IMG/VR virus record: IMGVR_UViG_3300014832_000004
Location: 16,871 to 80,870 of that record
Source of the DNA: a virus
Lineage: Duplodnaviria; Caudoviricetes
Reading direction: 5' to 3' (one strand)
DNA: 64,000 nt
A program made the translations under genes and the position numbers. Positions 17,554 through 64,000 of the stretch are shown here, piece after piece (within the stretch, counting starts at the first letter, position 1; each line of letters begins with the position of its first letter). A model generated the notes under the pieces. That model saw nothing but the letters and a program-made list of their open reading frames with translations, searched no databases and had not been told where the DNA came from.

Positions 17554-18433
17554 TTTCAAGCTCCGCTAACAAGTCGCCGGTCATCCGGAGAGCGTTCTCA
17601 AGATTTCGAACTGCCTGTTGGTAGTAGCTTGACTTCAGCTCGATGCCGACGAACTTCCTCCCCATCTGCACCGCCACATGCCCTTCGCTCCCGATTCCTG
17701 CGAACGGGGACAGAACGACATCGCCAGGGTTGGTCCATAGCTCGATGCCGCGCCTGATGACCTCAAGCTGCAGCGGGCAGATGTGCCTCTCGTCGGCATG
17801 CTCGCGAGCAGACTGATACTGCAGCGTGTCTGATGGGTTGATGTCCATCCATACAGGGCTTGCGATCTTCTGCCAGTAGCTCACCGGGTAGTTGTCTGGC
17901 GTATGCGTCACGCGCTCATCTTGCTGGCCTGGTGCGCGCACGGTGATCAGGTAGTCCGGCAGACCTTGCCGGCACATCGACGCATTATCGCGCACCGACT
18001 TGTGCAGCAGCCCGATGGCCTTGGTGCGCTGCATCTGAGTGACAGGATCTTTCCAGATGACCACTTCGGAGTGGAAGATAAACCCTTGTGCCTGAAACGC
18101 TCGGATCATGTCGCCTCGGAAATCTTTCAGACCGACGTAGCCGTCCCGTTCCTTGCTCGCAGGGAACTGCATGCAGTGGAACGAAACGTTCCGGCCGGGT
18201 TTCATGACGCGCAGCAGCTCACGGACCATGAACCCGAAGTGCTCGAAAAATTCTTCTGTCGTTCGGCAGTTGCCCATGTCTCTAGGGCTGTTGCTGTACG
18301 TGTACAGGCTGGCGAATGGCGGGCTGAAGATGCTGTAATCAATCGATCTGGCCGGCAGCCCGGCGAGCGTCTCGACGCAATCGCCGTTGATGATGGTCCA
18401 TCCTTCGCCGGATGCTTGGTCAATGCAGTTCAT
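17543..18433 (-). CDS. Amino (N4-C/N6-A) DNA methyltransferase, beta class
   Basis: NGDC, SPPF catalytic motif, HICPLQL, VLSPFAGIGS motif I. Confidence 0.9.
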   Translation of the reverse strand: MNCIDQASGEGWTIINGDCVETLAGLPARSIDYSIFSPPFASLYTYSNSPRDMGNCRTTEEFFEHFGFMVRELLRVMKPGRNVSFHCMQFPASKERDGYVGLKDFRGDMIRAFQAQGFIFHSEVVIWKDPVTQMQRTKAIGLLHKSVRDNASMCRQGLPDYLITVRAPGQQDERVTHTPDNYPVSYWQKIASPVWMDINPSDTLQYQSAREHADERHICPLQLEVIRRGIELWTNPGDVVLSPFAGIGSEGHVAVQMGRKFVGIELKSSYYQQAVRNLENALRMTGDLLAELENAS

Positions 18434-18649
18434 GCGATTTTCTCCATTGGATGCTGTTGAAGGCGCGCCGCACGCAATAGCTGCGGGCGATGCTGATTGC
18501 CGTGTAAATTGCGCCAATCGCCATGTTGTCGGACAGGCTTATGGCGATGCCGAAGGCCGGCATTATCGCCGCGTTGGCAATAAGCGATACTAACCGATCG
18601 CCACATTTGCCGCCGACTCAACGGCGCTCTGTGTTCTGGTCTGGCTCAT
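18420..18649 (-). pseudogene. Small 2-TM phage membrane protein with a 1-nt frameshift
   Basis: MSQTRTQSAVESAANVAIG stops at 18590; adjacent frame continues LVSLIANAAIMPAFG..SIARSYCVRRAFN; ATGA overlap with helicase stop. Confidence 0.6.
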
Positions 18650-20025
18650 GCTGATGTCGCCAAGAATGCAGGGATGGATACGCGATTGCCGGCGGCGTAC
18701 TCGTTTGTGTTCTTGCGCGCTCCAAGAACCGAATCACGGACGGCGGCAAGTGTTTCAGAAGCCATCTTGGCTGCCATGTCCTGCGCCGCATCCTGCTTGC
18801 GCTTGATGTTGGCGACGACGGATCCATCCTGGTTGCTGGCGAATACATGGATATGAACCGGGCGCTTTTGGCCGAATCGCCATGATCGGCGGATGGCCTG
18901 GTAGAAGCCCTCGTAGCTGTCGTTGACGCCGACGAATGCTTGATTGGCGCAGTGCTGGAAATTCAGCCCCCATCCGCAGATCTTCTGCTTGCTGATGAGG
19001 ACGCGATGTTGTCCAGCCGAGAACCCGACCATTCTCGCCTCCTTGATGTCGTTATCGTCGGAGCCGGCTACTTGCACAGACCCTGGAATTGCTTTTTCGA
19101 GCATGTCGCCTTCGTCGTTAAGGTCACACCAGACGATCCACGGGGCGCTGTCTGAATTGACCAGATCTGCGCACGCCTTGACACGCTGCGCCATGCTGTC
19201 GCGCCTTGCCTGCCGGCGCTCGGTGAGCGTCTGTGCTTCCATGGCGAACAAGCCATGCGCAGAGTTGTGCTCGATTTCGACCGTGTGCTGATGGATATTG
19301 AGCGGCGGGAGGTCGTAGGCTCTGGCGTCGTAGCCAAGATCCGCCGGGCTGCGAATCATGGCTCCCCACGATGCAACCCACCGCCAGAACACTTGCCTGG
19401 CATGGCCCTTCAGCCGCCAAACGCTTGTATCCCCGCCGTCGTGGACGAAGAATTCGGCCAGCATTTCAGCACGGCTGCGCACCCCGAGGAATTCCGCATG
19501 CGTTCCCAACTCCGTCCAGTCGTTCGGGCTCGGCGTCGCCGTGCAGCAGAGCTTGTACGGCGTGTGTCGGAATGCGGCTATGAGCAGCGCCAGCGTGCGG
19601 CTGGCGTGCGATTTGATGATGCTCGACTCGTCAAGAGCAACGCCTGAGAACTGCGACATATTGAACCTGTGCATGCGGTCGTAGTTGGTAATGTTGATGC
19701 CGGCCACCACGTCTTGAGCTTCGCGGCAGTGCGTTACTTTGGTTCCCATAATCCGGGCCTCTGAAACGAACTGCTGAGCGACGGCCAGCGGACACAGGAT
19801 GATGACCGGCCTACCTGAGTGCGCCGTGACGGCATCTGCCCACGCGATGGCCATGCGCATCTTGCCCAGCCCGGTGTCGGCAAAAATTGCGGCTCGACCG
19901 CGGCGCAGAGCCCATGCGGTTAGGTCCCGCTGGTGCGGGAACAAATCGTAACCGCGCAATGGCGTGTCAATGCCAGCGGACGCGACGACGCCGATCTTGT
20001 TTCGGATGAACTTGGAGTAGGTCAT
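18646..20025 (-). CDS. SNF2-like SF2 helicase
   Basis: ADTGLGK, LDESS, CTATP, GLNFQ, QAIRRSWRFGQ. Confidence 0.88.
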   Translation of the reverse strand: MTYSKFIRNKIGVVASAGIDTPLRGYDLFPHQRDLTAWALRRGRAAIFADTGLGKMRMAIAWADAVTAHSGRPVIILCPLAVAQQFVSEARIMGTKVTHCREAQDVVAGINITNYDRMHRFNMSQFSGVALDESSIIKSHASRTLALLIAAFRHTPYKLCCTATPSPNDWTELGTHAEFLGVRSRAEMLAEFFVHDGGDTSVWRLKGHARQVFWRWVASWGAMIRSPADLGYDARAYDLPPLNIHQHTVEIEHNSAHGLFAMEAQTLTERRQARRDSMAQRVKACADLVNSDSAPWIVWCDLNDEGDMLEKAIPGSVQVAGSDDNDIKEARMVGFSAGQHRVLISKQKICGWGLNFQHCANQAFVGVNDSYEGFYQAIRRSWRFGQKRPVHIHVFASNQDGSVVANIKRKQDAAQDMAAKMASETLAAVRDSVLGARKNTNEYAAGNRVSIPAFLATSA

Positions 20026-21749
20026 GCCTGGTGGTTCCGTATCACGCCGTTTTCGATCCAGAACGCACCGACGGTATCCGGCAACTTGGTCGGCACCGCC
20101 TTGAGGGTGGCGAACAGCAGTGCGGTTTCGATCTCGCCATCTTCGGCAAGGCCATCAAGCCAGAACAGGATGTCTTCGCGGCCGGTCACGTCGAGCACAT
20201 CCATGCGGTCAAGGACCAGCAGCTTGACGCCTGATATGTGGCTGATCGCTTCGGCAATCATCGCGTCTGCGCGCCACTTCTCTGACTCTGACAGTAGGTT
20301 GTAGGGCCGGCCGCCTCCGGTTATGGTCATGTCAGCATCGATGTCGACGCGCAGCCACTCGGTCATGTGCGACGACGACGCCAGTCGCTGGTTGATCGGT
20401 CCAAGCGCATCGGCGAGCATCTCGCCAGGTATCCCATTCGGCGCCAGGGCATCGGCTACCGCCTCCCACTTGGTGACGTCGACGTGATAGGCGCGGGCGG
20501 TGTCAGTGCGGCTGTCGGCAAGCAGCGCTGTTCGCTCGTCGTCTTCAAGCGTCTTGATGGCTTCCTTCAGCGCCACGCGCGACTTCTTCGCCTCGTCGAC
20601 CTTCGCCCGGGCGGCGGCGATTTCCTCGGTCGTTGGCGCCGGGGCGGATTTCTGGTCGTCGATCTCGGCCAGGGCTTTTGCTGCTGCGTCGGCGTCTGCC
20701 AGGTCGCGCTTGTCGTTCGCGACCGATCTGGCGAGCAAGTCGCGAGCACTCTGATACTCGGCGAGCTTTCCGGGATCGGCCGGGGAGTCGACGACTGGCG
20801 GCGGCGTGAATTCGATCAGCGCGCCGTTGGCGTGGTCGTGCCGCAGCAGAGCGGAGCATGCCGGGCATTTGTAGGTTGGCTCGGTCGGAAGCTGCTTGCC
20901 TCCCTTGCTCATCTCGGCGTCGACTTTGTCCTGCAACTCCTTCAGTGCCGACTCGTCATGGCGCAGCTTGGCCTCGATGCGGGCGAACTTGCCGGCGCTC
21001 TCGCGAAGCCCTGACAGCCGCGCGCCTTGATCTGCCTGCGCCTTGGCCCGGCCCTGCATGTCGCCGATCTGGCGCACGCCGTCTTCGATCTTCTGCGCCA
21101 GCGTATCAACCTCGGCTCGGCGGGCCTTCAGATTCTCGGGATTGAATCCTGGCTTCGGCGCCACCCATGACGAGGCCTTGACGCTGCCGTAGGTTTCTCC
21201 GGTGACAGTGCGCCATGAGGCCTTGTTGTCACGTGCCTTGGCCTGCGCCTCCTTGTGCGCGGCGTCGAAGCCGGCCCGCAGGTGCGGGGAGATCATCTTG
21301 ACCATCTCATGGTCGCAGCCCTTGTCGAGCAGGCGTTGCGTGACGGCGTCTCCGTCTGTGCGCAGGCCCATCAGGCCGAAGAGGAACGTGCGGCGCTCGT
21401 TGGCCGGAAGGCTGCTAAAGCGCTGTGCGTCGAGGACGTAGGGCAGGATGGCCGGCGGTCGCTCGTCGGTGTGTTCGTGGGCGCCGTTCGGCACGGTGAT
21501 AGCGCTGCGGCCCCTGTCGTGATCGACCACGACATAGCCAACGGTCTGGCCTTCGGTGATGAGGGCCGGGTAATCCTTCTTCATGCTGACGCGCGACGCA
21601 TCGCCGGTGAGCGCCATGCGAACCGCTTCGGCGATACTGCTCTTGCCGCTGTGGTTGCGCCCACAGATGAGCGTGACAGGTCGCGTCAGGCGGATGTCGA
21701 CGTCGACGGCGCCGATGAAATTCTTGGCTTGGATGGCGGTGATTTTCAT
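20022..21749 (-). CDS. Rad50/SbcC-like ABC ATPase
   Basis: Walker A GRNHSGKS, CPAC hook, LLSESE signature, LVLDRMD Walker B. Confidence 0.8.
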   Translation of the reverse strand: MKITAIQAKNFIGAVDVDIRLTRPVTLICGRNHSGKSSIAEAVRMALTGDASRVSMKKDYPALITEGQTVGYVVVDHDRGRSAITVPNGAHEHTDERPPAILPYVLDAQRFSSLPANERRTFLFGLMGLRTDGDAVTQRLLDKGCDHEMVKMISPHLRAGFDAAHKEAQAKARDNKASWRTVTGETYGSVKASSWVAPKPGFNPENLKARRAEVDTLAQKIEDGVRQIGDMQGRAKAQADQGARLSGLRESAGKFARIEAKLRHDESALKELQDKVDAEMSKGGKQLPTEPTYKCPACSALLRHDHANGALIEFTPPPVVDSPADPGKLAEYQSARDLLARSVANDKRDLADADAAAKALAEIDDQKSAPAPTTEEIAAARAKVDEAKKSRVALKEAIKTLEDDERTALLADSRTDTARAYHVDVTKWEAVADALAPNGIPGEMLADALGPINQRLASSSHMTEWLRVDIDADMTITGGGRPYNLLSESEKWRADAMIAEAISHISGVKLLVLDRMDVLDVTGREDILFWLDGLAEDGEIETALLFATLKAVPTKLPDTVGAFWIENGVIRNHQA

Positions 21750-22578
21750 GGCGTCATGTCCTTGATGGCGAAATAGACGGCCATGCACGCCTTCACATCA
21801 GCCATGGCGCTGTGCGCGTTTTCCAGTTCAAGGCCAGTGAAGTGGCTGTAGGCTTCGGTCAGGTTGGCCGTCTTGTGGTGCGTTCTGCCGACCGCCAGCA
21901 TGCGTTCAGTCGGAGGAAGCTTGCAGATCGGAGTTGCGAGCCTGGCTGTGCATTCGGCTTTCCCGGCTTTCCACTCGTCAGCCGCCAGGTCGCCGTAGCG
22001 CATCATGGCGATGCGGACAATTCGGGCGTCGAAGCTCTCGTTGTGGCCCACGCGCAGGTTGACGCCGCGCCACATTTCCAGGAACGCGCTCAGGGCGATG
22101 TCTTCCGGTATTCCGATATCGCCGGCCATCTCGGTGGTGATGCCGTGGATGGCAGATACCTCATCGGGGATCGTCCAGCCGTTCGGGCGAATCATCAGGT
22201 CCAGGCTCGACAGCACCTGGCGCGTTTCAGCGTCGACGACAGCTGCGGCGATCTGCACGATGTGCGGCTGGTGCGCCGCTTCCGATGGAGCTTTGAAATC
22301 CGGCAGGCCGGTCGTCTCGGTGTCGTAGAACAGAATGGGGTTCATGGCGGTTACTCGATGCCCATGCCGCCGCGCTCGCGGCGCTGTCGGGCGGGAGTCG
22401 CGCTCTGCATCGCTTCCTGCCTTTCAGCGGCGCGGATCGCGGCTTCTTCTTCGGGGTCTGGGCGCCAGTCGCCGGCCGGCGCGGCTTTCTTGATTTCCTG
22501 CGGCACGGTCTGCGGTTGCTTCTGATCGAGCTGCGGCGCGTCGTGGATTTCGCCGGGGTCCTGGTCGACGGTCTGTGG
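21708..22578. repeat. ~870 bp direct repeat, copy 1 (copy 2 at 61071-61941)
   Basis: Identical translated exonuclease; matches at both ends and spot checks; first mismatch seen at 22475/61838. Confidence 0.92.
21746..22345 (-). CDS. DEDDh 3'-5' exonuclease (DnaQ-like)
   Basis: FYDTETTG, GHNESFD, AHSAMADV. Confidence 0.9.
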   Translation of the reverse strand: MNPILFYDTETTGLPDFKAPSEAAHQPHIVQIAAAVVDAETRQVLSSLDLMIRPNGWTIPDEVSAIHGITTEMAGDIGIPEDIALSAFLEMWRGVNLRVGHNESFDARIVRIAMMRYGDLAADEWKAGKAECTARLATPICKLPPTERMLAVGRTHHKTANLTEAYSHFTGLELENAHSAMADVKACMAVYFAIKDMTP

Positions 22579-23322
22579 CTCGTTTTCCTCAACCACGAAC
22601 CCGCCTTCGATTACAGCTCCTCGACCTCGGTCTGCGGCATCCGACAGCGCAACCGCGTTGGCTACTTCGATGCTGCACGGCATGTATTTGATCACCTGCA
22701 GCAGTGGCACCTTGCGGGCGTACATTTCCCAATCGCGGAAGCTGTAATGCTTTTGGCCTTGCTTGTTGTACTTGTCGCGATGTTTCTTGATTTTGCTGAC
22801 TCGCCAAAGCTCGATGATCGGCATCGTCGCGTCCTTTACCCATCCGATCGCGTAGGCGTGGGTAATGTCGGCCGGGTCATCCAGGTCGGTTTCGTTGTGG
22901 ATGATCAGGTCGCGCTTGGCGCCGTCGATGAAGGTGTATTCCTGGTCCTTGAATATCACGCCGGTGAATACCGTTCCGCGTCCGCTGCGCGACACAAGAT
23001 CGACCAACCCCTTCCAGCCCGGAACAAATGTGCATGTCGTTCCGTAGGGGACCAGAAACCCGGCGCCGTTTACTCCGGGCTCAAGGCCAAGCTGGCCGGC
23101 GGTCATGATGCTGGCTGCAATGCTCTTGGTGGTGCATCGCTGCAGCGCCTCGCTGGTGCTGAACGCAGTCAGCGCAAGGCGCGTCATGCGGTCGGCGGTC
23201 AGATGCTTCGGCAGCGCCAAAGCCATTTGCGGCTTCAGTTTGTCCATGAAGCTGCTGAATGCCGCAACCGGGGATTGGCGTTTTTCTCCGGTAACGACTG
23301 ACTTTAGGTCTGCTGTGGTCAT
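22351..23322 (-). CDS. recT: RecT-family single-strand annealing protein
   Basis: LPKHLTADRM, GLEP, GWKGLVDL, MYARK..LLQVIKYMP; next to YqaJ nuclease. Confidence 0.85.
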   Translation of the reverse strand: MTTADLKSVVTGEKRQSPVAAFSSFMDKLKPQMALALPKHLTADRMTRLALTAFSTSEALQRCTTKSIAASIMTAGQLGLEPGVNGAGFLVPYGTTCTFVPGWKGLVDLVSRSGRGTVFTGVIFKDQEYTFIDGAKRDLIIHNETDLDDPADITHAYAIGWVKDATMPIIELWRVSKIKKHRDKYNKQGQKHYSFRDWEMYARKVPLLQVIKYMPCSIEVANAVALSDAADRGRGAVIEGGFVVEENEPQTVDQDPGEIHDAPQLDQKQPQTVPQEIKKAAPAGDWRPDPEEEAAIRAAERQEAMQSATPARQRRERGGMGIE

Positions 23323-23331
23323 GCTGGACTC

Positions 23332-24276
23332 CTATTCAATGAGCAGCGGGCGGGAGCCTGCTACTGTCTTGGTGAACTCGTTGATGTGGCCGGCGAGAGG
23401 CTGCATGTCGAGGTATGCAGCCTGCCAGTCGGTTTTCTGGCTTGGCTTGTTGTTCTTCCATGTCGCAATTCTCTGGCCGTTGTAGATCACGGTGGCGGCG
23501 CTTCCGATGCGCAGCTTGATCTGCGTTGCGAGCAGTTCGGCGCGTTCCTCGCCATCCTTGTTGGCTGCCTTGGCGTCTTTCAGCGATCGACACATGGCGA
23601 ACAGTTCGTCGTCGGCCTCGATCGTCTCACCGTCGTCCTTGGCGTACAGCCATCGCACGTCGTCGGCGGTTTCCGGCGGCGGCGGGTTGCGGTCTTGGAC
23701 GCGCTGCCAGAACTCGATTTCGCGTGCCCGGATTGCGGCAATCGTTTCGTCGTCGCGCTCGATCCAGTGCACGCGCGGCCTGTCGTCGAATCCCGTCAAC
23801 GCAGCGATGACGGCTCGGCGACGCGGGCGCAGCATCAGCCCGTGCATCACTTGGGCGGCGTAATAGATCGGCACGTCGTCCGTCTCTTCTTCGCCCCAAA
23901 GCTTGGCCGCGAACGGGCTGACGGTCTTGGCTTCGCAGTTAACCGGCTCCCCGTCGATGATCAGCTCAAGGTCAATTTCGGCCGCCAGAAATGGATACTC
24001 AGGGTCTTGGTAGCGCCTGTTCTGCGCGACCAGTTCAACGTCGTGGCCGCGGTCAGTCAGCTCGTCGAGCAGCATTTCGACGACGATCGGCTCCCACCGG
24101 TGGCCACGGTCGAAAAGCCTCTGCTTTGCTGGCGCCACTTCTTCGGCAAAGGCCCCGATCTTTTCCTGATAGAGCTTGAAAGCGGATTTCCATGGGCTGA
24201 CGCCCAGGATGGCGGCGACATCGCTGCCGCCGATGTATGTCGACCGGTCTAGTGGGATGACTTCTGGTGCGTTCAT
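23332..24276 (-). CDS. YqaJ-like viral recombinase exonuclease
   Basis: IGGSDVAAILGVSPWKS, EIDL, EAKT, YAAQVMH. Confidence 0.9.
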   Translation of the reverse strand: MNAPEVIPLDRSTYIGGSDVAAILGVSPWKSAFKLYQEKIGAFAEEVAPAKQRLFDRGHRWEPIVVEMLLDELTDRGHDVELVAQNRRYQDPEYPFLAAEIDLELIIDGEPVNCEAKTVSPFAAKLWGEEETDDVPIYYAAQVMHGLMLRPRRRAVIAALTGFDDRPRVHWIERDDETIAAIRAREIEFWQRVQDRNPPPPETADDVRWLYAKDDGETIEADDELFAMCRSLKDAKAANKDGEERAELLATQIKLRIGSAATVIYNGQRIATWKNNKPSQKTDWQAAYLDMQPLAGHINEFTKTVAGSRPLLIE

Positions 24277-24578
24277 TCCTTTGCCCTCCGTTCGGCTTCC
24301 GCATACGCCATGCGCCGGCAGTACGCATCGGTCTCGGCGCGGGCGAGCACACAGAATTCGTGCTCATGGCCGAGAAAAAGAAGCGCTCCGGCGTGCTGGA
24401 ACTGGCCTTCGGTAAGCGCCCCGATCGCGGCGGCAACGTTGTCGCCGTCGTGAGGGTCGAATTCCCCGCCTGGGGCCATCAACTGTTCGACGTAGAGATC
24501 GTGATCGAACAGTTCCGGCGCCTCGAAATCGCCGGTGCCGATCTGGCAATCGCGGCGGCCCATTACAGGAGGCTCCAC
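24273..24578 (-). CDS. Hypothetical protein
   Basis: Overlapping start/stop chain in leftward operon. Confidence 0.55.
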   Translation of the reverse strand: MEPPVMGRRDCQIGTGDFEAPELFDHDLYVEQLMAPGGEFDPHDGDNVAAAIGALTEGQFQHAGALLFLGHEHEFCVLARAETDAYCRRMAYAEAERRAKE

Positions 24579-25262: not shown

Positions 25263-25850
25263 TTATTTGATGGACGACTGAACAGCGCACGCGGAAAGCA
25301 AAACTCCTTTCCATTGATGCCAGAATTCGAGCCCATTAATGTGCATTGAATTTATTTTCTCGTCGTCAAATTCATGCCAATCGTTGTGCTTGTGGGTTTT
25401 GCAACCGATGGTCAAAAACTCGTTCGTGATGGTTACGAACCATGGCAGCCCATAAATAAAAACCGGCGTCGATTTCAATTTTTCGCCGCGCAGGTTGGCG
25501 CCGCGCAGGTTGGCGCCCAACAGATTGGCGCCGTACAGATTGGCGCCGCACAGGTCGGCGTCGCGCAGGTCGGCGTCGCGCAGGTCGGCGCCGTACAGAT
25601 TGGCGCCGCACAGGTCGGCGCCGTACAGGTCGGCGCCGTACAGATTGGCGCCGCACAGGTCGGCGTCGCGCAGGTCGGCGCGGTACAGATTGGCGTCGCG
25701 CAGGTCGGCGTCGCGCAGGTCGGCGCGGTACAGATTGGCGCCGCGCAGGTAGGCGCGGTACAGATTGGCGCCGCGCAGGTAGGCGTCGGTCAGGTTGGCG
25801 GCATCAACCGTAAAAATAACATCGCCTATCCTGTTCTTGATTTCGATCAT
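25263..25850 (-). CDS. Pentapeptide-repeat protein
   Basis: About 20 A(N/D)LxG/x repeats from 15-bp tandem units at 25487-25801. Confidence 0.9.
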
Positions 25851-27692: not shown

Positions 27693-29068
27693 ATTACTCT
27701 GAATTCGTGTCTCGAAAACTCGGGATTGTCGAGTCGGCAGGTATCGACGATCCAATGCTCGACTATGGCATGTTCCCGCACCAGGTGGATCTTGCAAAGT
27801 GGGCGCTTCGTCGCGGACGCGCAGCCATTTTTGCCGACACCGGACTCGGCAAAAGCCGCATGCAGTTGGCGTGGGCAGATACGGTACGAAGAGTAACCGG
27901 CCGCGATGTTCTGATTCTGGCCCCTCTTGCAGTGGCACAGCAGACCGTCGAAGAGGGCGCGAAAATAGGCGTGTCTGTGACTCATGCGAGGGAATCGTCA
28001 GACGTGCATCCGGGAGTCAACATTACGAACTACGACCGAGTTCACAAGTTCGACCCGTCGCGGTTCGGCGCCGTGGTTCTCGATGAGAGCAGCATAATCA
28101 AACATCACGCGGCAAAGACACTGCAAACGCTGCTTGAAATGTTTCGATATACGCCATTCAAGCTGGCATGCACTGCCACCCCTTCGCCGAATGACTGGAC
28201 GGAGCTAGGGAACCACGCAGAATTCCTTGGCGTCCGGTCGAGAGCAGAAATGCTCGCTGAGTTTTTTATTCACGACGGAGGAGACACACAAACCTGGCGT
28301 CTAAAGGGGCATGCTCGCCATATTTTTTGGCAATGGGTATCGTCATGGGGCGCAATGTTGCGCAGCCCTGCTGATCTAGGTCACGACGCGTCAGCATACG
28401 TACTGCCGAAACTGCACGTCCATCAGCACATCATTGAGATTGCTCACAAGCCAGAGAACGGCCTGATTCCTATGGAGGCGCAGACGCTGACCGAGAGAAG
28501 AAATGCTCGACGGGAGAGTCTTGTCGATCGTGTTCGGGCGTGCGCTGAAATCGTAAATTCTTCTGCCGGCACGTGGATTGTATGGTGCGACTTGAACGAC
28601 GAGGGAAACGCTCTTGAGTCGGCTATTCCAGATTCTGTGCAGGTTGCTGGATGCGATACCGAAGAATTCAAGGAGAAAACGATGCTCGAGTTTGCGCATG
28701 GCAAGATCCGTGTTCTGGTCAGCAAACCAAGCATCTGCGGGTTCGGGCTTAATTTTCAGGCGGCCACCAATCAGGCATTCGTCGGAGTTACCGACTCGTT
28801 CGAGAAGTATTACCAGGCCGTTAGGCGATCTTGGCGATTCGGGCAAAAGAACGAGGTCAACGTGCATGTTTTCGCCAGCAATATTGAGGGCGCCGTAGTG
28901 GCCAACCTTCGGCGAAAAGAGATTGACGCGAAAGCAATGGCCGATGCGATGGCCGCCGAAACTCTTGACGCAGTGCGGTCATCTGTTGTCGGAGCGAGAA
29001 AGGACACGAACATCTACACACCAACCCGGCAGATAAAGCTGCCATCATTTTTGACGGGGGCGGCATGA
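27689..29068 (+). CDS. SNF2-like SF2 helicase (paralog of 18646-20025)
   Basis: ADTGLGKS, LDESS, CTATP, QAVRRSWRFGQ. Confidence 0.88.
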   Translation: MNYSEFVSRKLGIVESAGIDDPMLDYGMFPHQVDLAKWALRRGRAAIFADTGLGKSRMQLAWADTVRRVTGRDVLILAPLAVAQQTVEEGAKIGVSVTHARESSDVHPGVNITNYDRVHKFDPSRFGAVVLDESSIIKHHAAKTLQTLLEMFRYTPFKLACTATPSPNDWTELGNHAEFLGVRSRAEMLAEFFIHDGGDTQTWRLKGHARHIFWQWVSSWGAMLRSPADLGHDASAYVLPKLHVHQHIIEIAHKPENGLIPMEAQTLTERRNARRESLVDRVRACAEIVNSSAGTWIVWCDLNDEGNALESAIPDSVQVAGCDTEEFKEKTMLEFAHGKIRVLVSKPSICGFGLNFQAATNQAFVGVTDSFEKYYQAVRRSWRFGQKNEVNVHVFASNIEGAVVANLRRKEIDAKAMADAMAAETLDAVRSSVVGARKDTNIYTPTRQIKLPSFLTGAA

Positions 29069-29934
29069 ACTGCATTGCGCAAGATTCTGGAGAGAGCTTT
29101 ACTATTTACAACGGGGATTGCGTCGAAGTTCTTCGCGGCCTGCCGGATAACTCGATTCACTACAGTATTTTTTCGCCTCCATTTGCGAGCCTCTACACGT
29201 ACAGCAATAGCCCGAGAGACATGGGCAACTGCCGCACGAATGAGGAATTCTTCGAGCACTTCGCCTTCCTCGTCGAAGAGTTGAAACGCGTCATGCGCCC
29301 AGGTCGAAACGTGTCGTTTCACTGCATGCTTTTCCCGGCCAGCAAGGAGCGTGACGGGTTCATCGGCCTGAAAGACTTTCGTGGGGACCTGATTCGTGCA
29401 TTCCAGGCGCAAGGGTTCATTTTTCATGCCGAAACGGTAATTTGGAAAGACCCGGTTACTCAGATGCAGCGGACAAAAGCGCTCGGGTTGCTCCACAAGT
29501 CGGTGCGTGAGAATTCGGCAATGTGTCGCATGGGGATACCTGACTACCTCGTTACGATGCGCGCCCCAGGTGAGCAGCTTGACCGCGTGACGCACACCAG
29601 AGAGGACTATCCCGTAGATCGCTGGCAGAAGGTCGCCAGCCCGGTCTGGATGGACATCAACCCATCGGACACCCTGCAATACCAGTCGGCACGAGAGAGC
29701 GACGACGAAAAGCACATCTGCCCGCTACAGCTTGAGGTAATCCGGCGAGGCGTTGAGCTTTGGACCAATCCGGGAGACATTGTTTTGTCGCCATTCGCCG
29801 GGATTGGCAGCGAGGGATACGTCAGCGTGCAGATGGGGCGCCGGTTTATCGGGGTGGAACTCAAGGAGTCGTATTACCGCCAGGCGGCTGCGAATCTCAA
29901 GAACGCGATCAGGGTTAATGGTGAATTGTTCTGA
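29065..29934 (+). CDS. Amino DNA methyltransferase, beta class (paralog of 17543-18433)
   Basis: SPPF, HICPLQL, VLSPFAGIGS. Confidence 0.9.
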   Translation: MNCIAQDSGESFTIYNGDCVEVLRGLPDNSIHYSIFSPPFASLYTYSNSPRDMGNCRTNEEFFEHFAFLVEELKRVMRPGRNVSFHCMLFPASKERDGFIGLKDFRGDLIRAFQAQGFIFHAETVIWKDPVTQMQRTKALGLLHKSVRENSAMCRMGIPDYLVTMRAPGEQLDRVTHTREDYPVDRWQKVASPVWMDINPSDTLQYQSARESDDEKHICPLQLEVIRRGVELWTNPGDIVLSPFAGIGSEGYVSVQMGRRFIGVELKESYYRQAAANLKNAIRVNGELF

Positions 29935-29937
29935 CCA

Positions 29938-30393
29938 ATGAAGCGCCGGCCAGCCATTTCTGACTACGCTGCGACCCCTTCCGTGCAGCCCGCTCTATTC
30001 CAACCAGAGGCGCAGCCGAAGCGCCGCAGGCCAGGCACAGTGCGCCGGCCAGATCCGCCAGAGACGGCTATTCAGCGCGTCATCCTGGACGCTCTGCGGC
30101 TGCATCCGCTCGTCAAGCGAGCTGACCGCATCAACGTCGGGGCTGGCCGATTTCTGCGCAAGGACGGCAGCGCAGGGCGCTTCGTGAGGTACGGAATGAG
30201 GGGCCAGTCAGACATCTGCGGGCGCATGACAGATGGTCGAGAGTTGGCTATCGAGGTCAAGCGGCCGTCGAATAAAAACGGGGCTACACCGGATCAACTG
30301 GCGTATCTCGCAGAGGTCAGAGATTCCGGCGGGGTGGCCGGCGTGGCGTGGTCTGTCGAAACGGCGTTTGCGATTGTCGAGGGGCGAGATTGA
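29938..30393 (+). CDS. VRR-NUC domain nuclease
   Basis: E..IQ, G.SD, IEVKRP, Q..YL. Confidence 0.8.
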   Translation: MKRRPAISDYAATPSVQPALFQPEAQPKRRRPGTVRRPDPPETAIQRVILDALRLHPLVKRADRINVGAGRFLRKDGSAGRFVRYGMRGQSDICGRMTDGRELAIEVKRPSNKNGATPDQLAYLAEVRDSGGVAGVAWSVETAFAIVEGRD

Positions 30394-31250
30394 GCATTGA
30401 GGCGATAAATTGGGCGTTTTCGCAGACGGTCGAAAGATCGTCCTCAAAGTTCGTCTTGGTGGCGATGGCAATGCGCTGTAATGACGCCAATCTTGTAGGC
30501 GGGAAGTGGGCATGCTGGCCATCTATTTCGGCGCTCGCTGAGGACACCTGCATGGACAGAAAAACGGTGTTCGACTCCCTCGCAAGGCTACAGGAATCCG
30601 GCCTGATTAGTGACGCTGGCATACGCAAAGGGGGTACCGGGCGCGTCACGGTATACGTTTTAAACAGTACCGAAAGAGGGACGATTAAACAGTCCCAAAA
30701 ACGGGACGATTCGGAAGACGAAATAGTACCGAAAACGGGACCATTGCAAAGTCTAATAGTACCGTTTTCGGACACTAATAGTCCCGAAAACGGTACTGAA
30801 ATAGTCCCGAAAACGGGACACGGAACAAGTAAGGAACAGAAAGGAACAGGTAAACCTAAAAACATTACACCTCGTCGCCGATCGCCGTCGTTCGATTTCA
30901 TCGGCCAGTTGATCGCCAACGGGGTGTCCGAAACGGCGGCAAAAGACTGGTCAGAAATTCGCAAGGCGAAAAAATTACCGCCTACCCAAACAGCATTTGA
31001 GGGAACGCTGCGAGAGGCCGGGAAAGCGAAACTCTCGATGCACGCCGCCATTACCGAATGCTGCGAACGAGGGTGGGGAGGATTCAAGGCGGAATGGATC
31101 GAAAACAGCAGAGCAAGGGCCGGCCCGCCAGTGCAACGTCCAGAGAAGTTCGATCCCATCGCCCACATAAACCGAAACAGGACTAGACCGACGCAAAATG
31201 AAGCCACAGGCCGCAACATTATCGACATCACCCCTGAGCGTGTGGCTTGA
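30390..31250 (+). CDS. Replication initiator (lambda O-like, N-terminal HTH)
   Basis: KFVLVAMA..CWPSISALAEDTCM.RKTV; internal iterons. Confidence 0.8.
   Translation: MSIEAINWAFSQTVERSSSKFVLVAMAMRCNDANLVGGKWACWPSISALAEDTCMDRKTVFDSLARLQESGLISDAGIRKGGTGRVTVYVLNSTERGTIKQSQKRDDSEDEIVPKTGPLQSLIVPFSDTNSPENGTEIVPKTGHGTSKEQKGTGKPKNITPRRRSPSFDFIGQLIANGVSETAAKDWSEIRKAKKLPPTQTAFEGTLREAGKAKLSMHAAITECCERGWGGFKAEWIENSRARAGPPVQRPEKFDPIAHINRNRTRPTQNEATGRNIIDITPERVA
30664..30821. other. Replication origin iterons (6 copies)
   Basis: A(T/C)AGT(A/C)CCGAAAACGG(G/T)AC-like units at 30664, 30689, 30723, 30756, 30778, 30801. Confidence 0.75.
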
Positions 31251-31821
31251 GCCGCACCCGAAGCTTGACGGGCTGGCGCTCATCGATCACCTATTTAACC
31301 GGCTGGACGGAATGTACCCGCACAAGTGGCGATCGGCATTTGCAAACGACCATGCGGTGGCGAACTGGCGCATGGCATGGGCAGAGGGATTTGCAGACGA
31401 GGGCATCACGCTTGAGGAGGTCCGATGCGGGCTGAGGGCTTGTCGCAGTCAGGATTGGCCGCCGTCGTTTGCCGAGTTTTTCAAATCCTGCCGTCCGCCG
31501 ATCGACTCCGGTGCAGCACTCATCGAGGCAGTCGAACAGATGCGGCGACGGGACACGAACGACGACGCTTGGAGCCATCCGGCGATTTATTGGGCTGCAG
31601 CGAAAATCGGATCGTTCGACCTGCTGAGCCGGACGACAAAAGACCTTGAGCCGATCTGGCGGCGCGAGCTGCAGGATCAAATGTCCAAGGGCGAATGGTC
31701 GGATATTCCGCGACGAGTGCCGGCGCTCCCCGCTCCGGGTCAGCAGCACACCGAGGCGCACGCCAAGGCGGTTATGGCCGAAATGATGGCTAAACTGCGC
31801 GGCAGGGAGTCGGCAGAATGA
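31198..31821 (+). CDS. Replication protein P-like helicase loader
   Basis: IDHLFNRLDGMYPHKW..WPPSFAEF; follows O-like gene. Confidence 0.65.
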   Translation: MKPQAATLSTSPLSVWLEPHPKLDGLALIDHLFNRLDGMYPHKWRSAFANDHAVANWRMAWAEGFADEGITLEEVRCGLRACRSQDWPPSFAEFFKSCRPPIDSGAALIEAVEQMRRRDTNDDAWSHPAIYWAAAKIGSFDLLSRTTKDLEPIWRRELQDQMSKGEWSDIPRRVPALPAPGQQHTEAHAKAVMAEMMAKLRGRESAE

Positions 31822-32075
31822 GCGCGCAAATTATCGACAATTCAGGCCTTGATCCGATGCTGTGGGCCAAGCGTCCGCGATCGCAAAACGCAATCGACGC
31901 GCTGTTCGACGGCGCGAAGACGAGCGCGGCGCTCGCCGAGATACGCGACCAGCACATTGCCGGAGGGGTTTGCACTGCCGATGGCGGTGTCGAATATCTT
32001 TGGAGTCAGGTGGCGCAGAAGTTCGTTCGGCCGCCGTGGTACGTGCGGGTTAATCATGAGATGGATTATGCGTGA
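31818..32075 (+). CDS. Hypothetical protein
   Basis: ATGA coupling. Confidence 0.55.
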   Translation: MSAQIIDNSGLDPMLWAKRPRSQNAIDALFDGAKTSAALAEIRDQHIAGGVCTADGGVEYLWSQVAQKFVRPPWYVRVNHEMDYA

Positions 32076-32910
32076 GCTGGCACTTTTTGCAGGGGCAGGC
32101 GGTGGAATCCTGGGAGGACTCTTGCTTGGATGGCGCACCGTCTGCGCTGTCGAGATTGATCCCTACGCCCGGAGCATACTGCTTGCACGGCAGCGAGACG
32201 GAATCCTGCAGCGCTTCCCGGTGTGGGACGACGTGCGAACTTTCGACGGGCTGCCCTGGCGCGGACACGTTGACGTTATCAGCGGTGGGTTCCCTTGCCA
32301 GGACATCAGTTGTGCCGGAAAAGGCGCCGGCCTCGATGGCGAGCGATCCGGCCTTTGGTCGGAGTTCGCCCGCATCATTAGCGAGGTACGACCCCGATAC
32401 GCATTCATTGAAAACAGCCCAATGCTCGTTGTTCGAGGGCTTGATCGAGTCCTCGCCGACCTTGCCGCGATGGGGCTCGATGCGGAATGGGGAATTGTTT
32501 CAGCGGCCGACGTGGGAGCGCCACACTTGCGAGAGCGACTCTGGATTGTTGCCGACGCCGACAGCCACGGATGCGTGCGGCCGGACTTACTACTACAGCC
32601 AGGGCACCAAAGACAGCGCTGTCGTGTCGCTGCTCGGCGTGGCAAAACTCCTGCCGACGCCAGCAGCAACGGACTGGAAGGGCCGCTACACATGGGAGAC
32701 GGTGCGCCGCCGAATGGACATGACGCGAGGCGTGCGCTTGCCGGAGGAGCTGTGCCGAGCGGCTGGCAAGGCGATCACCCCGAACCCGGAATATTGGGAA
32801 TGGATGATGGGCTGGCCGATTGGCGTAACCGCATTAAAGCCCTTGGCAATGGCCAGGTTCCACGAGTGGCAGCAACAGCATGGCGGATTCTGAGCGAGAG
32901 GGCAGCGTGA
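32068..32910 (+). CDS. C5 cytosine methyltransferase, alpha chain (motifs I-VIII and X)
   Basis: LFAGAGG, GGFPCQD, IENSP, RERLWIV, RIKALGNG. Confidence 0.88.
   Translation: MRELALFAGAGGGILGGLLLGWRTVCAVEIDPYARSILLARQRDGILQRFPVWDDVRTFDGLPWRGHVDVISGGFPCQDISCAGKGAGLDGERSGLWSEFARIISEVRPRYAFIENSPMLVVRGLDRVLADLAAMGLDAEWGIVSAADVGAPHLRERLWIVADADSHGCVRPDLLLQPGHQRQRCRVAARRGKTPADASSNGLEGPLHMGDGAPPNGHDARRALAGGAVPSGWQGDHPEPGILGMDDGLADWRNRIKALGNGQVPRVAATAWRILSERAA
32072..32893 (+). CDS. C5 methyltransferase beta chain in overlapping frame (motif IX, TRD-like repeats)
   Basis: LLPTP x2, NPEYWEWMMGWP; GTG start coupled to the upstream TGA. Confidence 0.7.
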   Translation: MSWHFLQGQAVESWEDSCLDGAPSALSRLIPTPGAYCLHGSETESCSASRCGTTCELSTGCPGADTLTLSAVGSLARTSVVPEKAPASMASDPAFGRSSPASLARYDPDTHSLKTAQCSLFEGLIESSPTLPRWGSMRNGELFQRPTWERHTCESDSGLLPTPTATDACGRTYYYSQGTKDSAVVSLLGVAKLLPTPAATDWKGRYTWETVRRRMDMTRGVRLPEELCRAAGKAITPNPEYWEWMMGWPIGVTALKPLAMARFHEWQQQHGGF

Positions 32911-33190: not shown

Positions 33191-33418
33191 ATGGAAAATT
33201 TCATCCAACCCAAAATAACCGGCTATCGTCAGTTGAACGAAGCAGAGGCGGCTCTGATGAACGAAATAAAAGCGAAGGGTATTGAGCTTGGCGATCTTGT
33301 CGAGAAGCTGCGGGGAACAGATGGTATTGATCAGAGGTGGACGAGCATCGGATCGACCGACCTGCAAACCGGCTTGATGGCTCTCTCGCGCGCAGTTGCC
33401 AGGCCGACGACGTTCTAA
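33191..33418 (+). CDS. acb2: Acb2-family anti-CBASS cyclic oligonucleotide sponge
   Basis: KITGYRQL..MNEIK..RW.SIG.TDLQTGLMAL.RAVARPTTF closely follows Acb2 as recalled; SD AGGAG. Confidence 0.85.
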   Translation: MENFIQPKITGYRQLNEAEAALMNEIKAKGIELGDLVEKLRGTDGIDQRWTSIGSTDLQTGLMALSRAVARPTTF

Positions 33419-33966: not shown

Positions 33967-34313
33967 CCGAGCAGCAGGCAGATGCCATCGACGGAATGTT
34001 GATCGAGTGGGCGAACTGGTCGCGAGGTTATCGGATGCGCATCGGATACCCGCAGAAGTCGCCAGGATTTGAGCCTGGCGGCGGCGCGGTCACCGCGGAG
34101 TCTTCGGAGCATCAGTACTACGACGTGCTGGCAGATCGTTGCAAGATTGTCGATCGCTGCATTGACGACCTGCCTACGCCGGAGCAGCGGGCTGCGATTC
34201 ACCGGCGCTATCTGTCGGCTGTGTATAGGATGCGAGACTACGAGCTGGCTCTGGCCGAGGCGATGGAAGCTCTGCTGGTGGCGTTTCGCCGGAAGGGGGT
34301 ACTGTGGGGGTGA
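33963..34313 (+). CDS. Late antiterminator Q-like protein
   Basis: L.EWANW..GYP..S..VDRCIDDL..EQRAAIHRRY; end of early-right operon. Confidence 0.65.
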   Translation: MTEQQADAIDGMLIEWANWSRGYRMRIGYPQKSPGFEPGGGAVTAESSEHQYYDVLADRCKIVDRCIDDLPTPEQRAAIHRRYLSAVYRMRDYELALAEAMEALLVAFRRKGVLWG

Positions 34314-34552
34314 GCGTAGAAGTAATGCGACTGCTGCGCAAGATCGACAGCCGTGACAGGAAAATAGCCGGTCTTCGGCGACGAGTGGAACAGCTTGAAA
34401 CGGCTATTGCGAATCACGAAATCAACGTGCGTCGTATGCCTATCGATGTCACTAGGGCGGTGCAAGAAGCTCTGTGCAACGTGCGGATGATCCCGGTTCT
34501 TGGCGTCGGATCGTCGGCAAGAATCGTTGAGATTAAGGCGTCAGATGCTTAG
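34310..34552 (+). CDS. Coiled-coil hypothetical protein
   Basis: GTGA coupling. Confidence 0.55.
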   Translation: MSVEVMRLLRKIDSRDRKIAGLRRRVEQLETAIANHEINVRRMPIDVTRAVQEALCNVRMIPVLGVGSSARIVEIKASDA

Positions 34553-34577
34553 TTGTGGTTTTGGCGATGAAACGAAA

Positions 34578-34597
34578 CAGCCGCCCGTAGGCGGCTG
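34578..34597. terminator. Terminator between converging operons
   Basis: CAGCCGCC-CGTA-GGCGGCTG; same core hairpin as 14267-14284. Confidence 0.7.
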
Positions 34598-34617
34598 ATT
34601 GTGCTCGGAGACAGCGG

Positions 34618-34950
34618 TTATTCGCGGAACGCCACCCACGCGAACTCCCAATCGTCTGGGCTTTCGCTCACCGGAGAGCCCTTTGTCGCCGGGTTTGCGA
34701 CGCGCTTTTTAAGGCGCATGACGATCGCCTGGTCGCCGTCGGCGAAGGTCGTCTCGACGCGGGACATGGGGATTCTGACGCCGGTCCATGTCTCGATAAG
34801 GTCGACGTTCTGCGGATACCCGATGCACGAGCACCAGCCGGACGCGTCGCCCTGGACGACGGTAGCGAGATCGCCGACCGTCGCCGGCGAGTAGGTGTAG
34901 GTGCCGAAATTTCCCGCAGGCATTACGGCACTGTTCATGAGGAAGATCAT
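34618..34950 (-). CDS. DUF1874/STIV B116-like protein (AcrIII-1 ring-nuclease family), GY variant
   Basis: IFLMNS..SCIGYPQNVDLI..TGV.IPMSR....GDQAIV.RL..R aligns by eye with SIRV1 gp29. Confidence 0.75.
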   Translation of the reverse strand: MIFLMNSAVMPAGNFGTYTYSPATVGDLATVVQGDASGWCSCIGYPQNVDLIETWTGVRIPMSRVETTFADGDQAIVMRLKKRVANPATKGSPVSESPDDWEFAWVAFRE

Positions 34951-34954
34951 CGTC

Positions 34955-35335
34955 TCAATCTCCGTAGATAATGCTGCTTGCGACCGTGCGCGCGGCGTCG
35001 GTCAGGAATTGACCGACCGGCCGGCCGGTCATCTTCGCGCAGTCCATCGCGCACCTGGTGGCGCGATCGAGCGCCGCCGCCGGAGCCGTCCCGGCCATGA
35101 TGGCGTCGAACAGATCGCCGAAGGCTTGCGCCTTGGCGGCATTTTCGGCTGCCGGCGAATAGTCGCCGTCCGCGTCCGGATTGGCGTCCGGATCGACCGT
35201 GTTTTCTCCGGCTGCGGCCGAGCCCCAGCCGGACTGGCCGACGAAGCCGGCGTCGTCGTCGCGGACGCGCGACTGCTGGTCGCGCAGTTGTTGCTGTCGC
35301 TCCAGTTCGAGCTGGTACATGCTGCTCAGTCCCAT
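34955..35335 (-). CDS. Acidic hypothetical protein (126 aa)
   Basis: SD AAGGGGG; D/E-rich middle. Confidence 0.65.
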   Translation of the reverse strand: MGLSSMYQLELERQQQLRDQQSRVRDDDAGFVGQSGWGSAAAGENTVDPDANPDADGDYSPAAENAAKAQAFGDLFDAIMAGTAPAAALDRATRCAMDCAKMTGRPVGQFLTDAARTVASSIIYGD

Positions 35336-35336
35336 T

Positions 35337-35567
35337 TCAATCCCCCTTCTCTGTATCCGATGACGCATCATGCGCCACCGGCGTTGCTTTGTCGGCTGCG
35401 GCAAGCTTGCCGTCCAGCCAGTCACGCAGGGCCTTTGACGCACCGCGGCGGATGTACTCGGCGCGCTGCGTCGCGCTGACCCTGGCGCTGATGGTGGCCA
35501 CCTGGCCAGATGGCGCGATGGTCGGCTGGCGCCCCTGGCCGGGGCGATTGCCTGTGCGCTTGGCCAT
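35337..35567 (-). CDS. Small ribbon-helix-helix-like DNA-binding protein
   Basis: RPGQGRQP..ATISARVSATQRAEY..GASKALRDWLD. Confidence 0.55.
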   Translation of the reverse strand: MAKRTGNRPGQGRQPTIAPSGQVATISARVSATQRAEYIRRGASKALRDWLDGKLAAADKATPVAHDASSDTEKGD

Positions 35568-35568
35568 G

Positions 35569-35892
35569 CTATCGACCGTCATCGAAACGGTCGTTGTCCG
35601 CAATCTCGCGGAAAAGACTCGCGAGCACTTCGCGGCTTTGTGCCGCGACCCACCTTGGATCCTTCGCTTGCTCACGGGCAGCCTCTTCGGCTATCTCGTA
35701 CCCTTCGCTGAGGACAGCGAAGGTTATAGCCGCTTCCGCTAGACCGCACGCGGCAGCGTATAGCGCGACCTGCTTCGGGTCGCGCGGAGAAGCATTAGCA
35801 TTAAACAGAGCCGGTTTAGCCGGGACATAGCCGGCCAAAATTTCTCTGAGCATTTCAGAGCAAGCCTGATATTTGTCCATGTCCATTTCCAT
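35569..35892 (-). CDS. Hypothetical protein (107 aa)
   Basis: SD AAGGAGG; first gene after promoter. Confidence 0.7.
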   Translation of the reverse strand: MEMDMDKYQACSEMLREILAGYVPAKPALFNANASPRDPKQVALYAAACGLAEAAITFAVLSEGYEIAEEAAREQAKDPRWVAAQSREVLASLFREIADNDRFDDGR

Positions 35893-35921
35893 TCCCTCCT
35901 TGGTTGTTGTGTGTCGGCATC

Positions 35922-35952
35922 TGTATTGTACGACAATACAAAAGGAAGTCAA
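35922..35952 (-). promoter_or_regulatory. Leftward sigma70 promoter overlapped by a perfect inverted repeat
   Basis: TTGACT-16 bp-TACAAT; TGTATTGT-ACG-ACAATACA at 35922-35940. Confidence 0.75.
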
Positions 35953-35978
35953 CAAGAATTTTCGCTATGCATTTCGTC

Positions 35979-36006
35979 TTGACAATAGCCTGGCGGATCT
36001 CGTAAT
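35979..36006 (+). promoter_or_regulatory. Possible late (pR'-like) promoter
   Basis: TTGACA-16 bp-CGTAAT upstream of terminase genes. Confidence 0.45.
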
Positions 36007-59092: not shown

Positions 59093-59103
59093 TGGTTCTG
59101 GCC

Positions 59104-62775: not shown

Positions 62776-62785
62776 GTCCTGTTCC

Positions 62786-63951: not shown

Positions 63952-64000
63952 TACGTGTCCTTTTCGGATGGCGTCAGCCCAGCCGGCAGCGGGTGGGCGT

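Follow-up and report, generated by a model that had tools for sequence, protein, structure and literature searches.

A DUF1874 gene at the end of an antisense phage cassette

We analysed a 64,000-nucleotide stretch of tailed-phage DNA (hereafter the window), positions 16,871 to 80,870 of the IMG/VR record IMGVR_UViG_3300014832_000004, which encodes a 110-aa protein with the fold of AcrIII-1 and Crn2, the ring nucleases of cyclic tetra-adenylate (cA4), and with a tyrosine where those enzymes have their catalytic histidine. The gene, g4, closes a cassette of four closely spaced minus-strand genes (g1 to g4) that lies between rightward early genes, which end at 34552, and a terminase/portal module that begins at about 35873 (Table 1). 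A GGAG motif lies 9 nt ahead of its ATG, its start follows the stop of g3 by 4 nt, and a terminator-like hairpin beyond its stop separates the cassette from the convergent plus-strand gene that ends at 34552.

The protein matches Pfam family PF08960 (STIV_B116-like, formerly DUF1874) with 45 bits (E 1.3e-11; cut-off 26 bits), residues 2-85 aligning to profile positions 1-84 of 101, and it also matches phrog_5063, a family without known function. Among PDB sequences, phmmer finds AFV3-109 (2J6B, E 1e-6) and STIV B116, and a profile built from close relatives reaches Crn2 (8Y6Z/8Y7F/8Y7G), B116 (2J85) and SIRV1 gp29 (2X4I, 6SCF). An AlphaFold2 (AF2) model computed with 52 relatives has a mean predicted local distance difference test score (pLDDT) of 89.2 and a predicted TM-score (pTM) of 0.81. 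All 16 Foldseek matches of this model at E <= 0.001 are chains of DUF1874 entries (TM 0.68-0.81), the next match standing at E 0.36, and the best of them is the cA4-bound Crn2 domain (TMq 0.81). A reading of this DNA made from the sequence alone had aligned the protein by eye with DUF1874; the hidden Markov model search and the fold matches bear this out, and the 110-aa protein is a member of PF08960 with the AcrIII-1 fold. NCBIfam has no model for it, nor for the His-type Crn2 protein P0235 or the Acb2 homologue of the same phage. It falls outside the catalytically defined AcrIII-1/Crn2 group, because it has neither of the two defining residues, His and Glu, and it plausibly works like that group.

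Tyrosine replaces the catalytic histidine throughout a large clade

In every alignment, the motif S-C-I-G-Y-P-Q-N of the window protein falls on S-A-I-G-H of the solved proteins, and in the Crn2 H495A crystal construct the engineered alanine falls on the Tyr45 column. The Tyr45 codon, TAT (read from the plus strand as 'ata'), is one transition away from a histidine codon (CAT). The sequence-only reading had reported that the GH motif reads GY at the catalytic position, as the PDB alignments and the codon confirm, and had left undecided how common such variants are. They make up a large, coherent clade. A word-indexed search returned 86 close relatives, 84 of which are 55-97% identical to the window protein and two of which are short fragments; every relative that covers the column has Tyr45. 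Invariant or near-invariant in this set are N6 to P11, S41, G44, W55, R64, D73, R79, R83, K90/G91 and W101/E102, among which N6, R64, D73 and R83 are the further motifs picked out earlier by eye (an Asn near the N-terminus, NR/SR, D and R), likewise conserved.

A profile search of 1.84 billion representatives (clusters at 50% identity) extended the picture to 833 matches at E <= 1e-3, 286 of them at E <= 1e-10. Among the 150 best domain matches, 145 have Tyr at position 45, three have His, one has Cys and one has Phe. A genuine GH-type tandem protein, P0190 (137 bits to Pfam), accounts for two of the three His matches, one for each of its domains, and the remaining exceptions look degenerate (P0120, His; P0092, Cys; P0229, Phe). 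An alignment of 87 diverse stand-alone Tyr-type proteins, in which columns average 27% identity, has a single invariant column, Tyr45. When these were placed in one tree with 48 His-type sequences (bacterial Crn2-like proteins, ATV ORF117, AFV3-109 and P0190), computed by a quick method on 114 columns, the two types formed the two sides of a single branch (Shimodaira-Hasegawa-like approximate likelihood ratio test, SH-aLRT, 98), with one change of state. Judged from these alignments, Tyr for His is a clade character and not a one-off substitution, at a position that the founding AcrIII-1 paper called 'absolutely conserved' (10.1101/778746). Many Tyr-type proteins score 20-25 bits, below the PF08960 cut-off, and routine annotation therefore misses them.

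The catalytic pair and the lid differ together on a retained frame

To compare the pockets of the two clades, we took residue roles from the structures of AcrIII-1 (10.1101/778746) and Crn2 (PMC11317161). The cA4 contacts N6 (N8 in AcrIII-1, N451 in Crn2), R64 (R66/R514) and R83 (R85/R533, the lid 'lock') are kept in both clades, as are the S-x-I-G turn and L80, and position 79 (R79 here, K529 in Crn2) is Arg or Lys in both. Position 7 (S7; S452 in Crn2) is Ser in most Tyr-type rows and in the Marinitoga Crn2, and Thr in the His set.

Other positions set the clades apart. Position 45 is Tyr in 87/87 proteins of the Tyr clade and His in 48/48 of the His clade. At positions 86-87 the His clade has Glu-Gly, its Glu (47/48) being the residue that orients the histidine, whereas the Tyr clade has Asp or Asn followed by Pro (Asp in 40 rows, Asn in 21; Asn86-Pro87 in the window protein). 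Position 90, in the lid, is Lys in 83/87 Tyr-type and Leu in 47/48 His-type proteins; position 82 is mostly Tyr against mostly Gly, and position 100 is Asp against Gly. N6, R64, R83 and K90 are each conserved at >= 90% in the Tyr clade, yet they are not invariant. In the Tyr clade the lid (residues about 81-100) is longer by 3-4 residues, and it is here that our model loses confidence, the only dip falling at residues 81-90 (pLDDT 68); in AcrIII-1, loop 82-94 is mobile (10.1101/778746). The alignments indicate that the catalytic dyad is replaced as a unit, that a basic lid residue is gained and that the phosphate-binding frame is retained. The coordinated change, in which Glu is lost and a lid Lys gained, argues for a rebuilt site over a simple dead enzyme.

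The protein is also predicted to form a homodimer. The interface score ipSAE is 0.73 against 0.01 for the best control, the three runs give the same contacts (100% agreement), and the pLDDT of the partner chain is 86; the mark used was reached by 20/30 proteins solved as pairs of one chain and by 1/23 solved as single chains. Residues 7-22, 79, 81-82, 102, 104 and 106 make up the predicted interface, which consists of beta2 and the pocket rim, as in solved DUF1874 dimers. This result may reflect the predictor's memory of those solved dimers.

The cassette has a conserved anchor and exchangeable cargo

Table 1 Features of the antisense cassette and the Acb2 homologue (window positions).
Feature	Position	Strand	Basis
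Acb2-family homologue, 75 aa, cyclic-nucleotide sponge family	33191..33418	+	PF24729 Acb2_Tad1_hairpin
Terminator-like hairpin, 8 pairs (7 G-C), 20 nt past the g4 stop	34578..34597	-	consensus scan
g4, Tyr-type DUF1874 (AcrIII-1/Crn2-fold) gene, 110 aa, last cassette gene	34618..34950	-	open reading frame (ORF), PF08960, PDB and fold matches
Tyr45 codon TAT, at the column of the catalytic His (AcrIII-1 H47, Crn2 H495)	34816..34818	-	sequence, alignments, conservation
g3, 126 aa, variable cargo	34955..35335	-	internal start 1 nt past the g2 stop
g2, 76 aa, conserved small protein, candidate ribbon-helix-helix (RHH) autoregulator (Aca-like)	35337..35567	-	strand-helix-helix pattern
g1, 107 aa, first cassette gene, ribosome-binding site AGGAGGG at 35900-35894	35569..35892	-	ORF
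Sigma-70-like promoter, TTGACT, 16 nt, TACAAT (10/12 matches)	35952-35925	-	consensus match
Perfect 8+8 palindrome TGTATTGT cgt ACAATACA over the -10, candidate operator	35922-35940	-	pattern match

No Pfam or PHROG match was found for g1 or g3. The g2 protein has 39 homologues with 24 invariant columns, and its AF2 model (pLDDT 59) shows two helices after an extended segment. We considered whether it could be called a proven RHH protein and rejected this, given that model, the lack of any match in Pfam, PHROG or PDB sequences and a BLASTP E of about 0.1 against the RHH repeats of P0170, a Tyr-type protein described below.

Comparison with related phages shows that the cassette differs between close kin. 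A phage whose terminase and portal are 99.6% and 99% identical to those here (L034) carries, at the same antisense site, g2 and a 72-aa gene, with g1, g3 and g4 absent; in another (L036), g2 stands at the same antisense site before the terminase gene, behind two other small genes. Contigs of one sludge run (X5) hold both cassette forms, and the variant, from which g1 and g3 are missing, has joints that match the L034 form (34608>35354, 745 nt replaced by 209, and 35580>35888). Two further studies have contigs with g4 and g3, which differ from the window at 10-15 positions in about 900 nt. Between near-identical phages, g1 and g3 are gained or lost along with the DUF1874 gene, and g2 is the conserved anchor of a cassette with swappable cargo. 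The arrangement has the look of an acr-aca (anti-CRISPR and anti-CRISPR-associated) operon, in which g2, by analogy, would be the regulator. A cassette with a regulator-like gene and swappable cargo offers g1 and g3, through guilt by association, as candidate anti-defence genes. In a metatranscriptome run (X15, an RNA library that may hold DNA), short contigs cover 34310-34608 and 35729-35995, and none runs across the DUF1874 gene.

The same phage encodes an Acb2 homologue, as had been read from the sequence; its gene belongs to the rightward early operon and lies 1.2 kb away from the cassette. The protein matches PF24729 with 60.9 bits (E 1.3e-16; cut-off 27 bits) and phrog_717 (E 4e-16). With the two proteins together, the phage may target two cyclic-nucleotide defences.

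Distribution, neighbourhoods and likely host family

A scan of metagenome contigs with a narrow profile yielded 23 loci. At 18 distinct close-clade loci, most neighbouring genes have no Pfam match, and those with one belong to phage or general families: lambda-type portal and terminase, phage-type RNA polymerase, baseplate proteins, integrases, M15 peptidases, ThyX, primase and helicases. The contigs of the distant representatives P0102, P0139 and P0100 (1.1-1.6 kb) are too short for context. A conserved partner gene was sought and rejected: the upstream genes at four loci, which encode 148-179 aa, show no detectable relation to one another (BLASTP E 0.055 to 4.9). On one unrelated phage contig (L011), an AcrVA2-like gene (PF26125; 4485-5348, plus strand) lies two genes upstream of a Tyr-type gene 72% identical to ours, a second setting of anti-defence character. 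One Tyr-type protein, P0170, is fused to an RHH_1 domain (38.8 bits), and P0204 and P0181 have weak N-terminal helix-turn-helix (HTH) matches. As clues to function, domain fusions were otherwise set aside, the C-terminal extensions of P0100, P0105, P0123 and P0125 having no Pfam family and only the RHH_1 fusion of P0170 being solid.

With two Tyr-type queries, no Tyr-type copy was found in 50,697 GenBank phage records and 72,556 plasmids, where only His-type matches appeared: archaeal viruses, Fusobacterium phages, Vibrio phage Rostov 7 and a Vibrio aerogenes plasmid, on which the gene lies beside cas1. The sole match in 400 other genomes sampled from the phylum is His-type, and 150 other genomes sampled from the likely host family gave one Tyr-type (G002) and one His-type (G113) copy. 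DUF1874 matches of any type occur in three host-family genomes (two Tyr-type, one His-type), too few for co-occurrence statistics with Cas10. The nearest copies in cellular assemblies are those of an Accumulibacter metagenome-assembled genome (MAG; 91% identity) and a Rhodocyclaceae MAG (70%). Sequencing runs that hold the window stretch come from bioreactor sludge, wastewater and riverine metagenomes of several studies.

Strong Cas10 matches occur in about 22/151 sampled host-family genomes; PF22335 exceeded its cut-off in 51/151, a count inflated by GGDEF-like cross-matches (an E. coli control was also positive), and only strong matches were counted. In G113, a type III-B (Cmr) contig (L027, C1058, 1-18185) encodes Cas6, Cmr1, Cas10/Cmr2, Cmr3 and two further RAMP-family proteins, and terminates in a His-type DUF1874 protein (Crn2) cut by the contig end. 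Between the Cmr genes and the Crn2 gene, the locus encodes two proteins of 427 and 441 aa without a Pfam family, which are possible effectors. Because of the Cas10 matches and this contig, signalling regulated by a His-type Crn2 (through cA4, by analogy) is likely in use in the host family. Within that family, the cellular regulator is His-type and the phage gene Tyr-type.

Proposed mechanism and competing explanations

We tentatively read the window protein as a dimeric neutraliser of a cyclic oligoadenylate, most likely cA4, in phage counter-defence, with cleavage by a Tyr/Lys site slightly favoured over binding; its ligand, catalysis and target defence are all inferred. The protein would act as a homodimer, like its solved relatives, with the mobile lid (residues about 81-100) closing over a pocket of two-fold symmetry. 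This pocket would hold a cyclic oligoadenylate, most probably cA4 made by the Cas10 of a type III CRISPR system, and removal of cA4 would keep cA4-activated effectors off. Cleavage would proceed by in-line attack of the ribose 2'-OH, helped by Tyr45 in place of the histidine general acid, with the pKa of Tyr45 lowered by the clade-specific lid residue Lys90 together with Arg64, Arg79 and Arg83. Metal-independent sites of Tyr, Lys and Arg serve RNA 2'-O-transesterification in Cas6, tRNA-splicing endonuclease and RelE. Expression would be driven by the promoter and operator of the cassette itself, with the conserved small protein g2 as repressor, as in acr-aca operons.

Cleavage is slightly favoured because no other residue of the clade is as conserved as the one at the replaced catalytic position, because Phe is almost never tolerated there (1/150 best domain matches), because loss of the Glu (E88 in AcrIII-1, E536 in Crn2, to D/N86-P87) is coupled to gain of the lid Lys90, and because His, a single transition away (TAT to CAT), has not been taken up by the clade. 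An anti-defence role is suggested by the promoter, operator and terminator of the cassette, by its g2 anchor with variable cargo and by the P0170 RHH_1 fusion, as well as by the AcrVA2-like neighbour, the Acb2 homologue in the same phage and the phage-type neighbourhoods.

Several points weigh against this proposal. Both catalysis-defining residues of the characterised enzymes, His and Glu, are missing from the window protein. In AcrIII-1 the H47A change lowers activity more than 2500-fold (10.1101/778746), and in Crn2 the E536A change markedly diminishes it (PMC11317161). H47A AcrIII-1 nevertheless binds cA4 tightly, as seen in a co-crystal (10.1101/778746), and H495A Crn2 keeps its affinity, with a dissociation constant (KD) of about 32-62 nM (PMC11317161); a protein without the histidine can therefore be a pure binder. 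The pocket also differs from that of SIRV1 gp29 (S49 to Q47, T50 to N48, Q81 to R79, and a rebuilt lid), so the ligand may not be cA4. Among the neighbours at the 18 close-clade loci there is no cas, CARF or CBASS (a phage defence that signals through cyclic oligonucleotides) family, and the Accumulibacter MAG with the 91% copy, which is incomplete, has no Cas10 match. Promoter, operator and RHH protein are each assigned by pattern matching only. In the literature searched, we found no paper or experimental work on Tyr-type members, and a His-type relative, SIRV2 gp37, is reported not to act as an Acr in native infection and to inhibit a host lysine methyltransferase (10.1101/2023.01.10.523387, preprint).

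A strong rival, somewhat less likely, is a non-catalytic role in which the dimer binds cA4 or a related cyclic oligoadenylate very tightly and buries it uncut, with Tyr45 and Lys90 as extra phosphate contacts. The catalytic His and its partner Glu are both lost, His-to-Ala mutants of the known enzymes bind cA4 tightly yet barely cleave it, and the added lid Lys fits a higher affinity. Bacterial phages commonly use sponges, this phage having its own Acb2, and the strong, operator-controlled predicted promoter would suit a stoichiometric inhibitor. On the other hand, a residue needed for binding only is rarely the sole invariant column at 27% mean column identity, or one that gives way to Phe just once among the 150 best domain matches; the binding residues N6, R64, R83 and K90 are, by comparison, not invariant. 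Type III systems can make large amounts of cA4, which would favour an enzyme over a binder. We consider it unlikely that the same fold serves another signal, such as cyclic hexa-adenylate (cA6), cyclic tri-adenylate (cA3) or a cyclic dinucleotide, cleaved or bound, and so a defence other than cA4-type III CRISPR. Clade-specific changes at or near the SIRV1 gp29 contacts (Q47, N48, R79, Y82, D/N86-P87, K90) and the longer lid could reflect a different ligand, and the lack of type III genes among the neighbours of the 18 loci fits as well. Hosts of the Pseudomonadota type infected by such phages carry CBASS more often than type III CRISPR. However, the protein keeps the core contacts to phosphate and ribose along with a two-fold dimer geometry suited to cA4, and cA4-type systems with Crn2 are present in the host family. 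Acb2 is described as covering many cyclic di- and trinucleotides (PMC10312549), so that, with Acb2 already in the phage, a second protein for these would be redundant.

A role without any nucleotide ligand, the fold being re-used for a protein-protein or DNA-related task (inhibitor of a host enzyme, or sensor or partner of a regulator), appears improbable. SIRV2 gp37 offers a precedent, some Tyr-type members have N-terminal DNA-binding domains (RHH_1 in P0170, weak HTH in P0204 and P0181), and archaeal members were early annotated 'DNA binding protein'. Those fusions can be read equally well as Acr-Aca fusions, though, the stand-alone 110-aa form has no DNA-binding domain, and conservation across the two clades is highest at the residues that contact phosphate in the solved structures with cA4. 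Very improbable, finally, is a chemistry in which Tyr45 is itself the nucleophile and opens the cA4 ring through a covalent phosphotyrosyl-oligoadenylate intermediate in the R64/R79/R83/K90 pocket, which resembles the metal-free site of type IB topoisomerases and tyrosine recombinases. The neighbouring 2'-OH would then resolve the intermediate to a 2',3'-cyclic phosphate, giving turnover, or the intermediate would persist as a covalent trap; if true, such chemistry would be new for ring nucleases and anti-CRISPRs.

Significance

AcrIII-1/Crn2 is the textbook viral answer to cyclic-oligoadenylate signalling. The Tyr-type proteins form a large sister branch of it, at least 145 clusters at 50% identity, with an invariant Tyr for His and a re-tooled lid, and they lie in tailed-phage DNA wherever context is readable (18 close-clade loci). 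If the neutralising protein that we tentatively favour does cleave its ligand, the branch holds a second way of catalysis built on this fold; if binding is all that it does, it provides the first DUF1874-fold sponge for type III CRISPR signals; and if its ligand is another one, it points to a further defence signal neutralised by phages. Since many members fall under the Pfam cut-off, counts of 'AcrIII-1 in phages' made with His-type models probably miss the Tyr branch. New here are the analysis of the coordinated swap, the contrast of His-type and Tyr-type proteins within one host family, and the cassette polymorphism.

Other features of the phage record

The 80,870-bp IMG/VR record appears to consist of two related phages, each about 40 kb long, joined head to tail. 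Its recombination module (SbcC-like, RecT, YqaJ) and some early genes are duplicated at 40-100% amino-acid identity (window 17200-24300 against 58700-64000, and window 29900-31800 against record 1554-3875), and one duplicated stretch, about 700 bp long and 100% identical, might have led to an assembly join. The two structural modules show no similarity in a self-comparison, and the DUF1874 cassette is present only in the second of the two apparent phages. The first phage encodes a 2277-aa protein (4162-10995, plus strand) in which the sole domain is an N-terminal LPD22 ('large polyvalent protein') domain. The gene stands between those for an SLT-domain protein and for a tailspike with BNR/endosialidase-like repeats, and its product is probably an internal protein of the virion that is ejected.

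Three DNA methyltransferases (17543-18517, minus strand; 29065-29934 and 31849-32910, plus strand), two of the N6/N4 type and one of the C5 type, probably serve restriction evasion and, with Acb2 and the cassette, would amount to a heavy anti-defence load. A 195-aa pentapeptide-repeat protein in the leftward early operon (25263-25850, minus strand) resembles DNA mimics of the Qnr/MfpA type and is a candidate anti-restriction or gyrase-directed factor; its gene contains a tandem array (25484-25800) in which a 15-nt unit, translated as A-[DN]-L-x-x, is repeated about 21 times.

Comparison with known systems

The sponges Acb2, Tad1, Tad2 and Acb4 are, like the window protein, small, oligomeric (as predicted here), phage-encoded and found in accessory regions, and they would share its way of working if it is non-catalytic; their folds are unrelated to DUF1874, and no DUF1874-fold sponge was found in the literature searched. 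With acr-aca operons the cassette shares a strong predicted promoter, an inverted repeat over the -10, a conserved regulator-like gene, varying cargo and a fixed site just before the terminase gene. It differs from them in that neither a known Aca family nor a Pfam RHH/HTH model matches g2 and in that its cargo is only candidate Acr.

Crn2, as in the Marinitoga Csx1-Crn2 protein (8Y6Z/8Y7F/8Y7G) and the G113 copy, has the same domain, its R514 and R533 have equivalents in the window protein, and its cA4-bound form is the closest structural match; the Marinitoga protein also has the N-terminal N-S-x-x-M-P motif in common with the window protein. Crn2, however, is found within cas loci or next to them and possesses His495 and Glu536, whereas the window protein has Tyr and D/N-P and belongs to a phage accessory cassette with no cas genes nearby. 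The AcrIII-1 proteins (SIRV1 gp29, 2X4I/6SCF; STIV B116, 2J85; AFV3-109, 2J6B) are alike in PF08960 membership and structure (Foldseek E 4e-8 to 7e-7, TM 0.73-0.75), in the homodimer predicted here through beta2, in the N/R/R contacts to cA4, in the mobile lid and in being encoded by a small stand-alone viral gene. The window protein departs from them in having Tyr for His47, Asp/Asn with Pro for Glu88 and a lid Lys for Leu, to which its clade adds mostly Tyr for G82. It belongs to a separate clade, divided from the His-type proteins by one branch (SH-aLRT 98) and with many members under the Pfam cut-off, whose hosts are bacteria of the Pseudomonadota type and not archaea.

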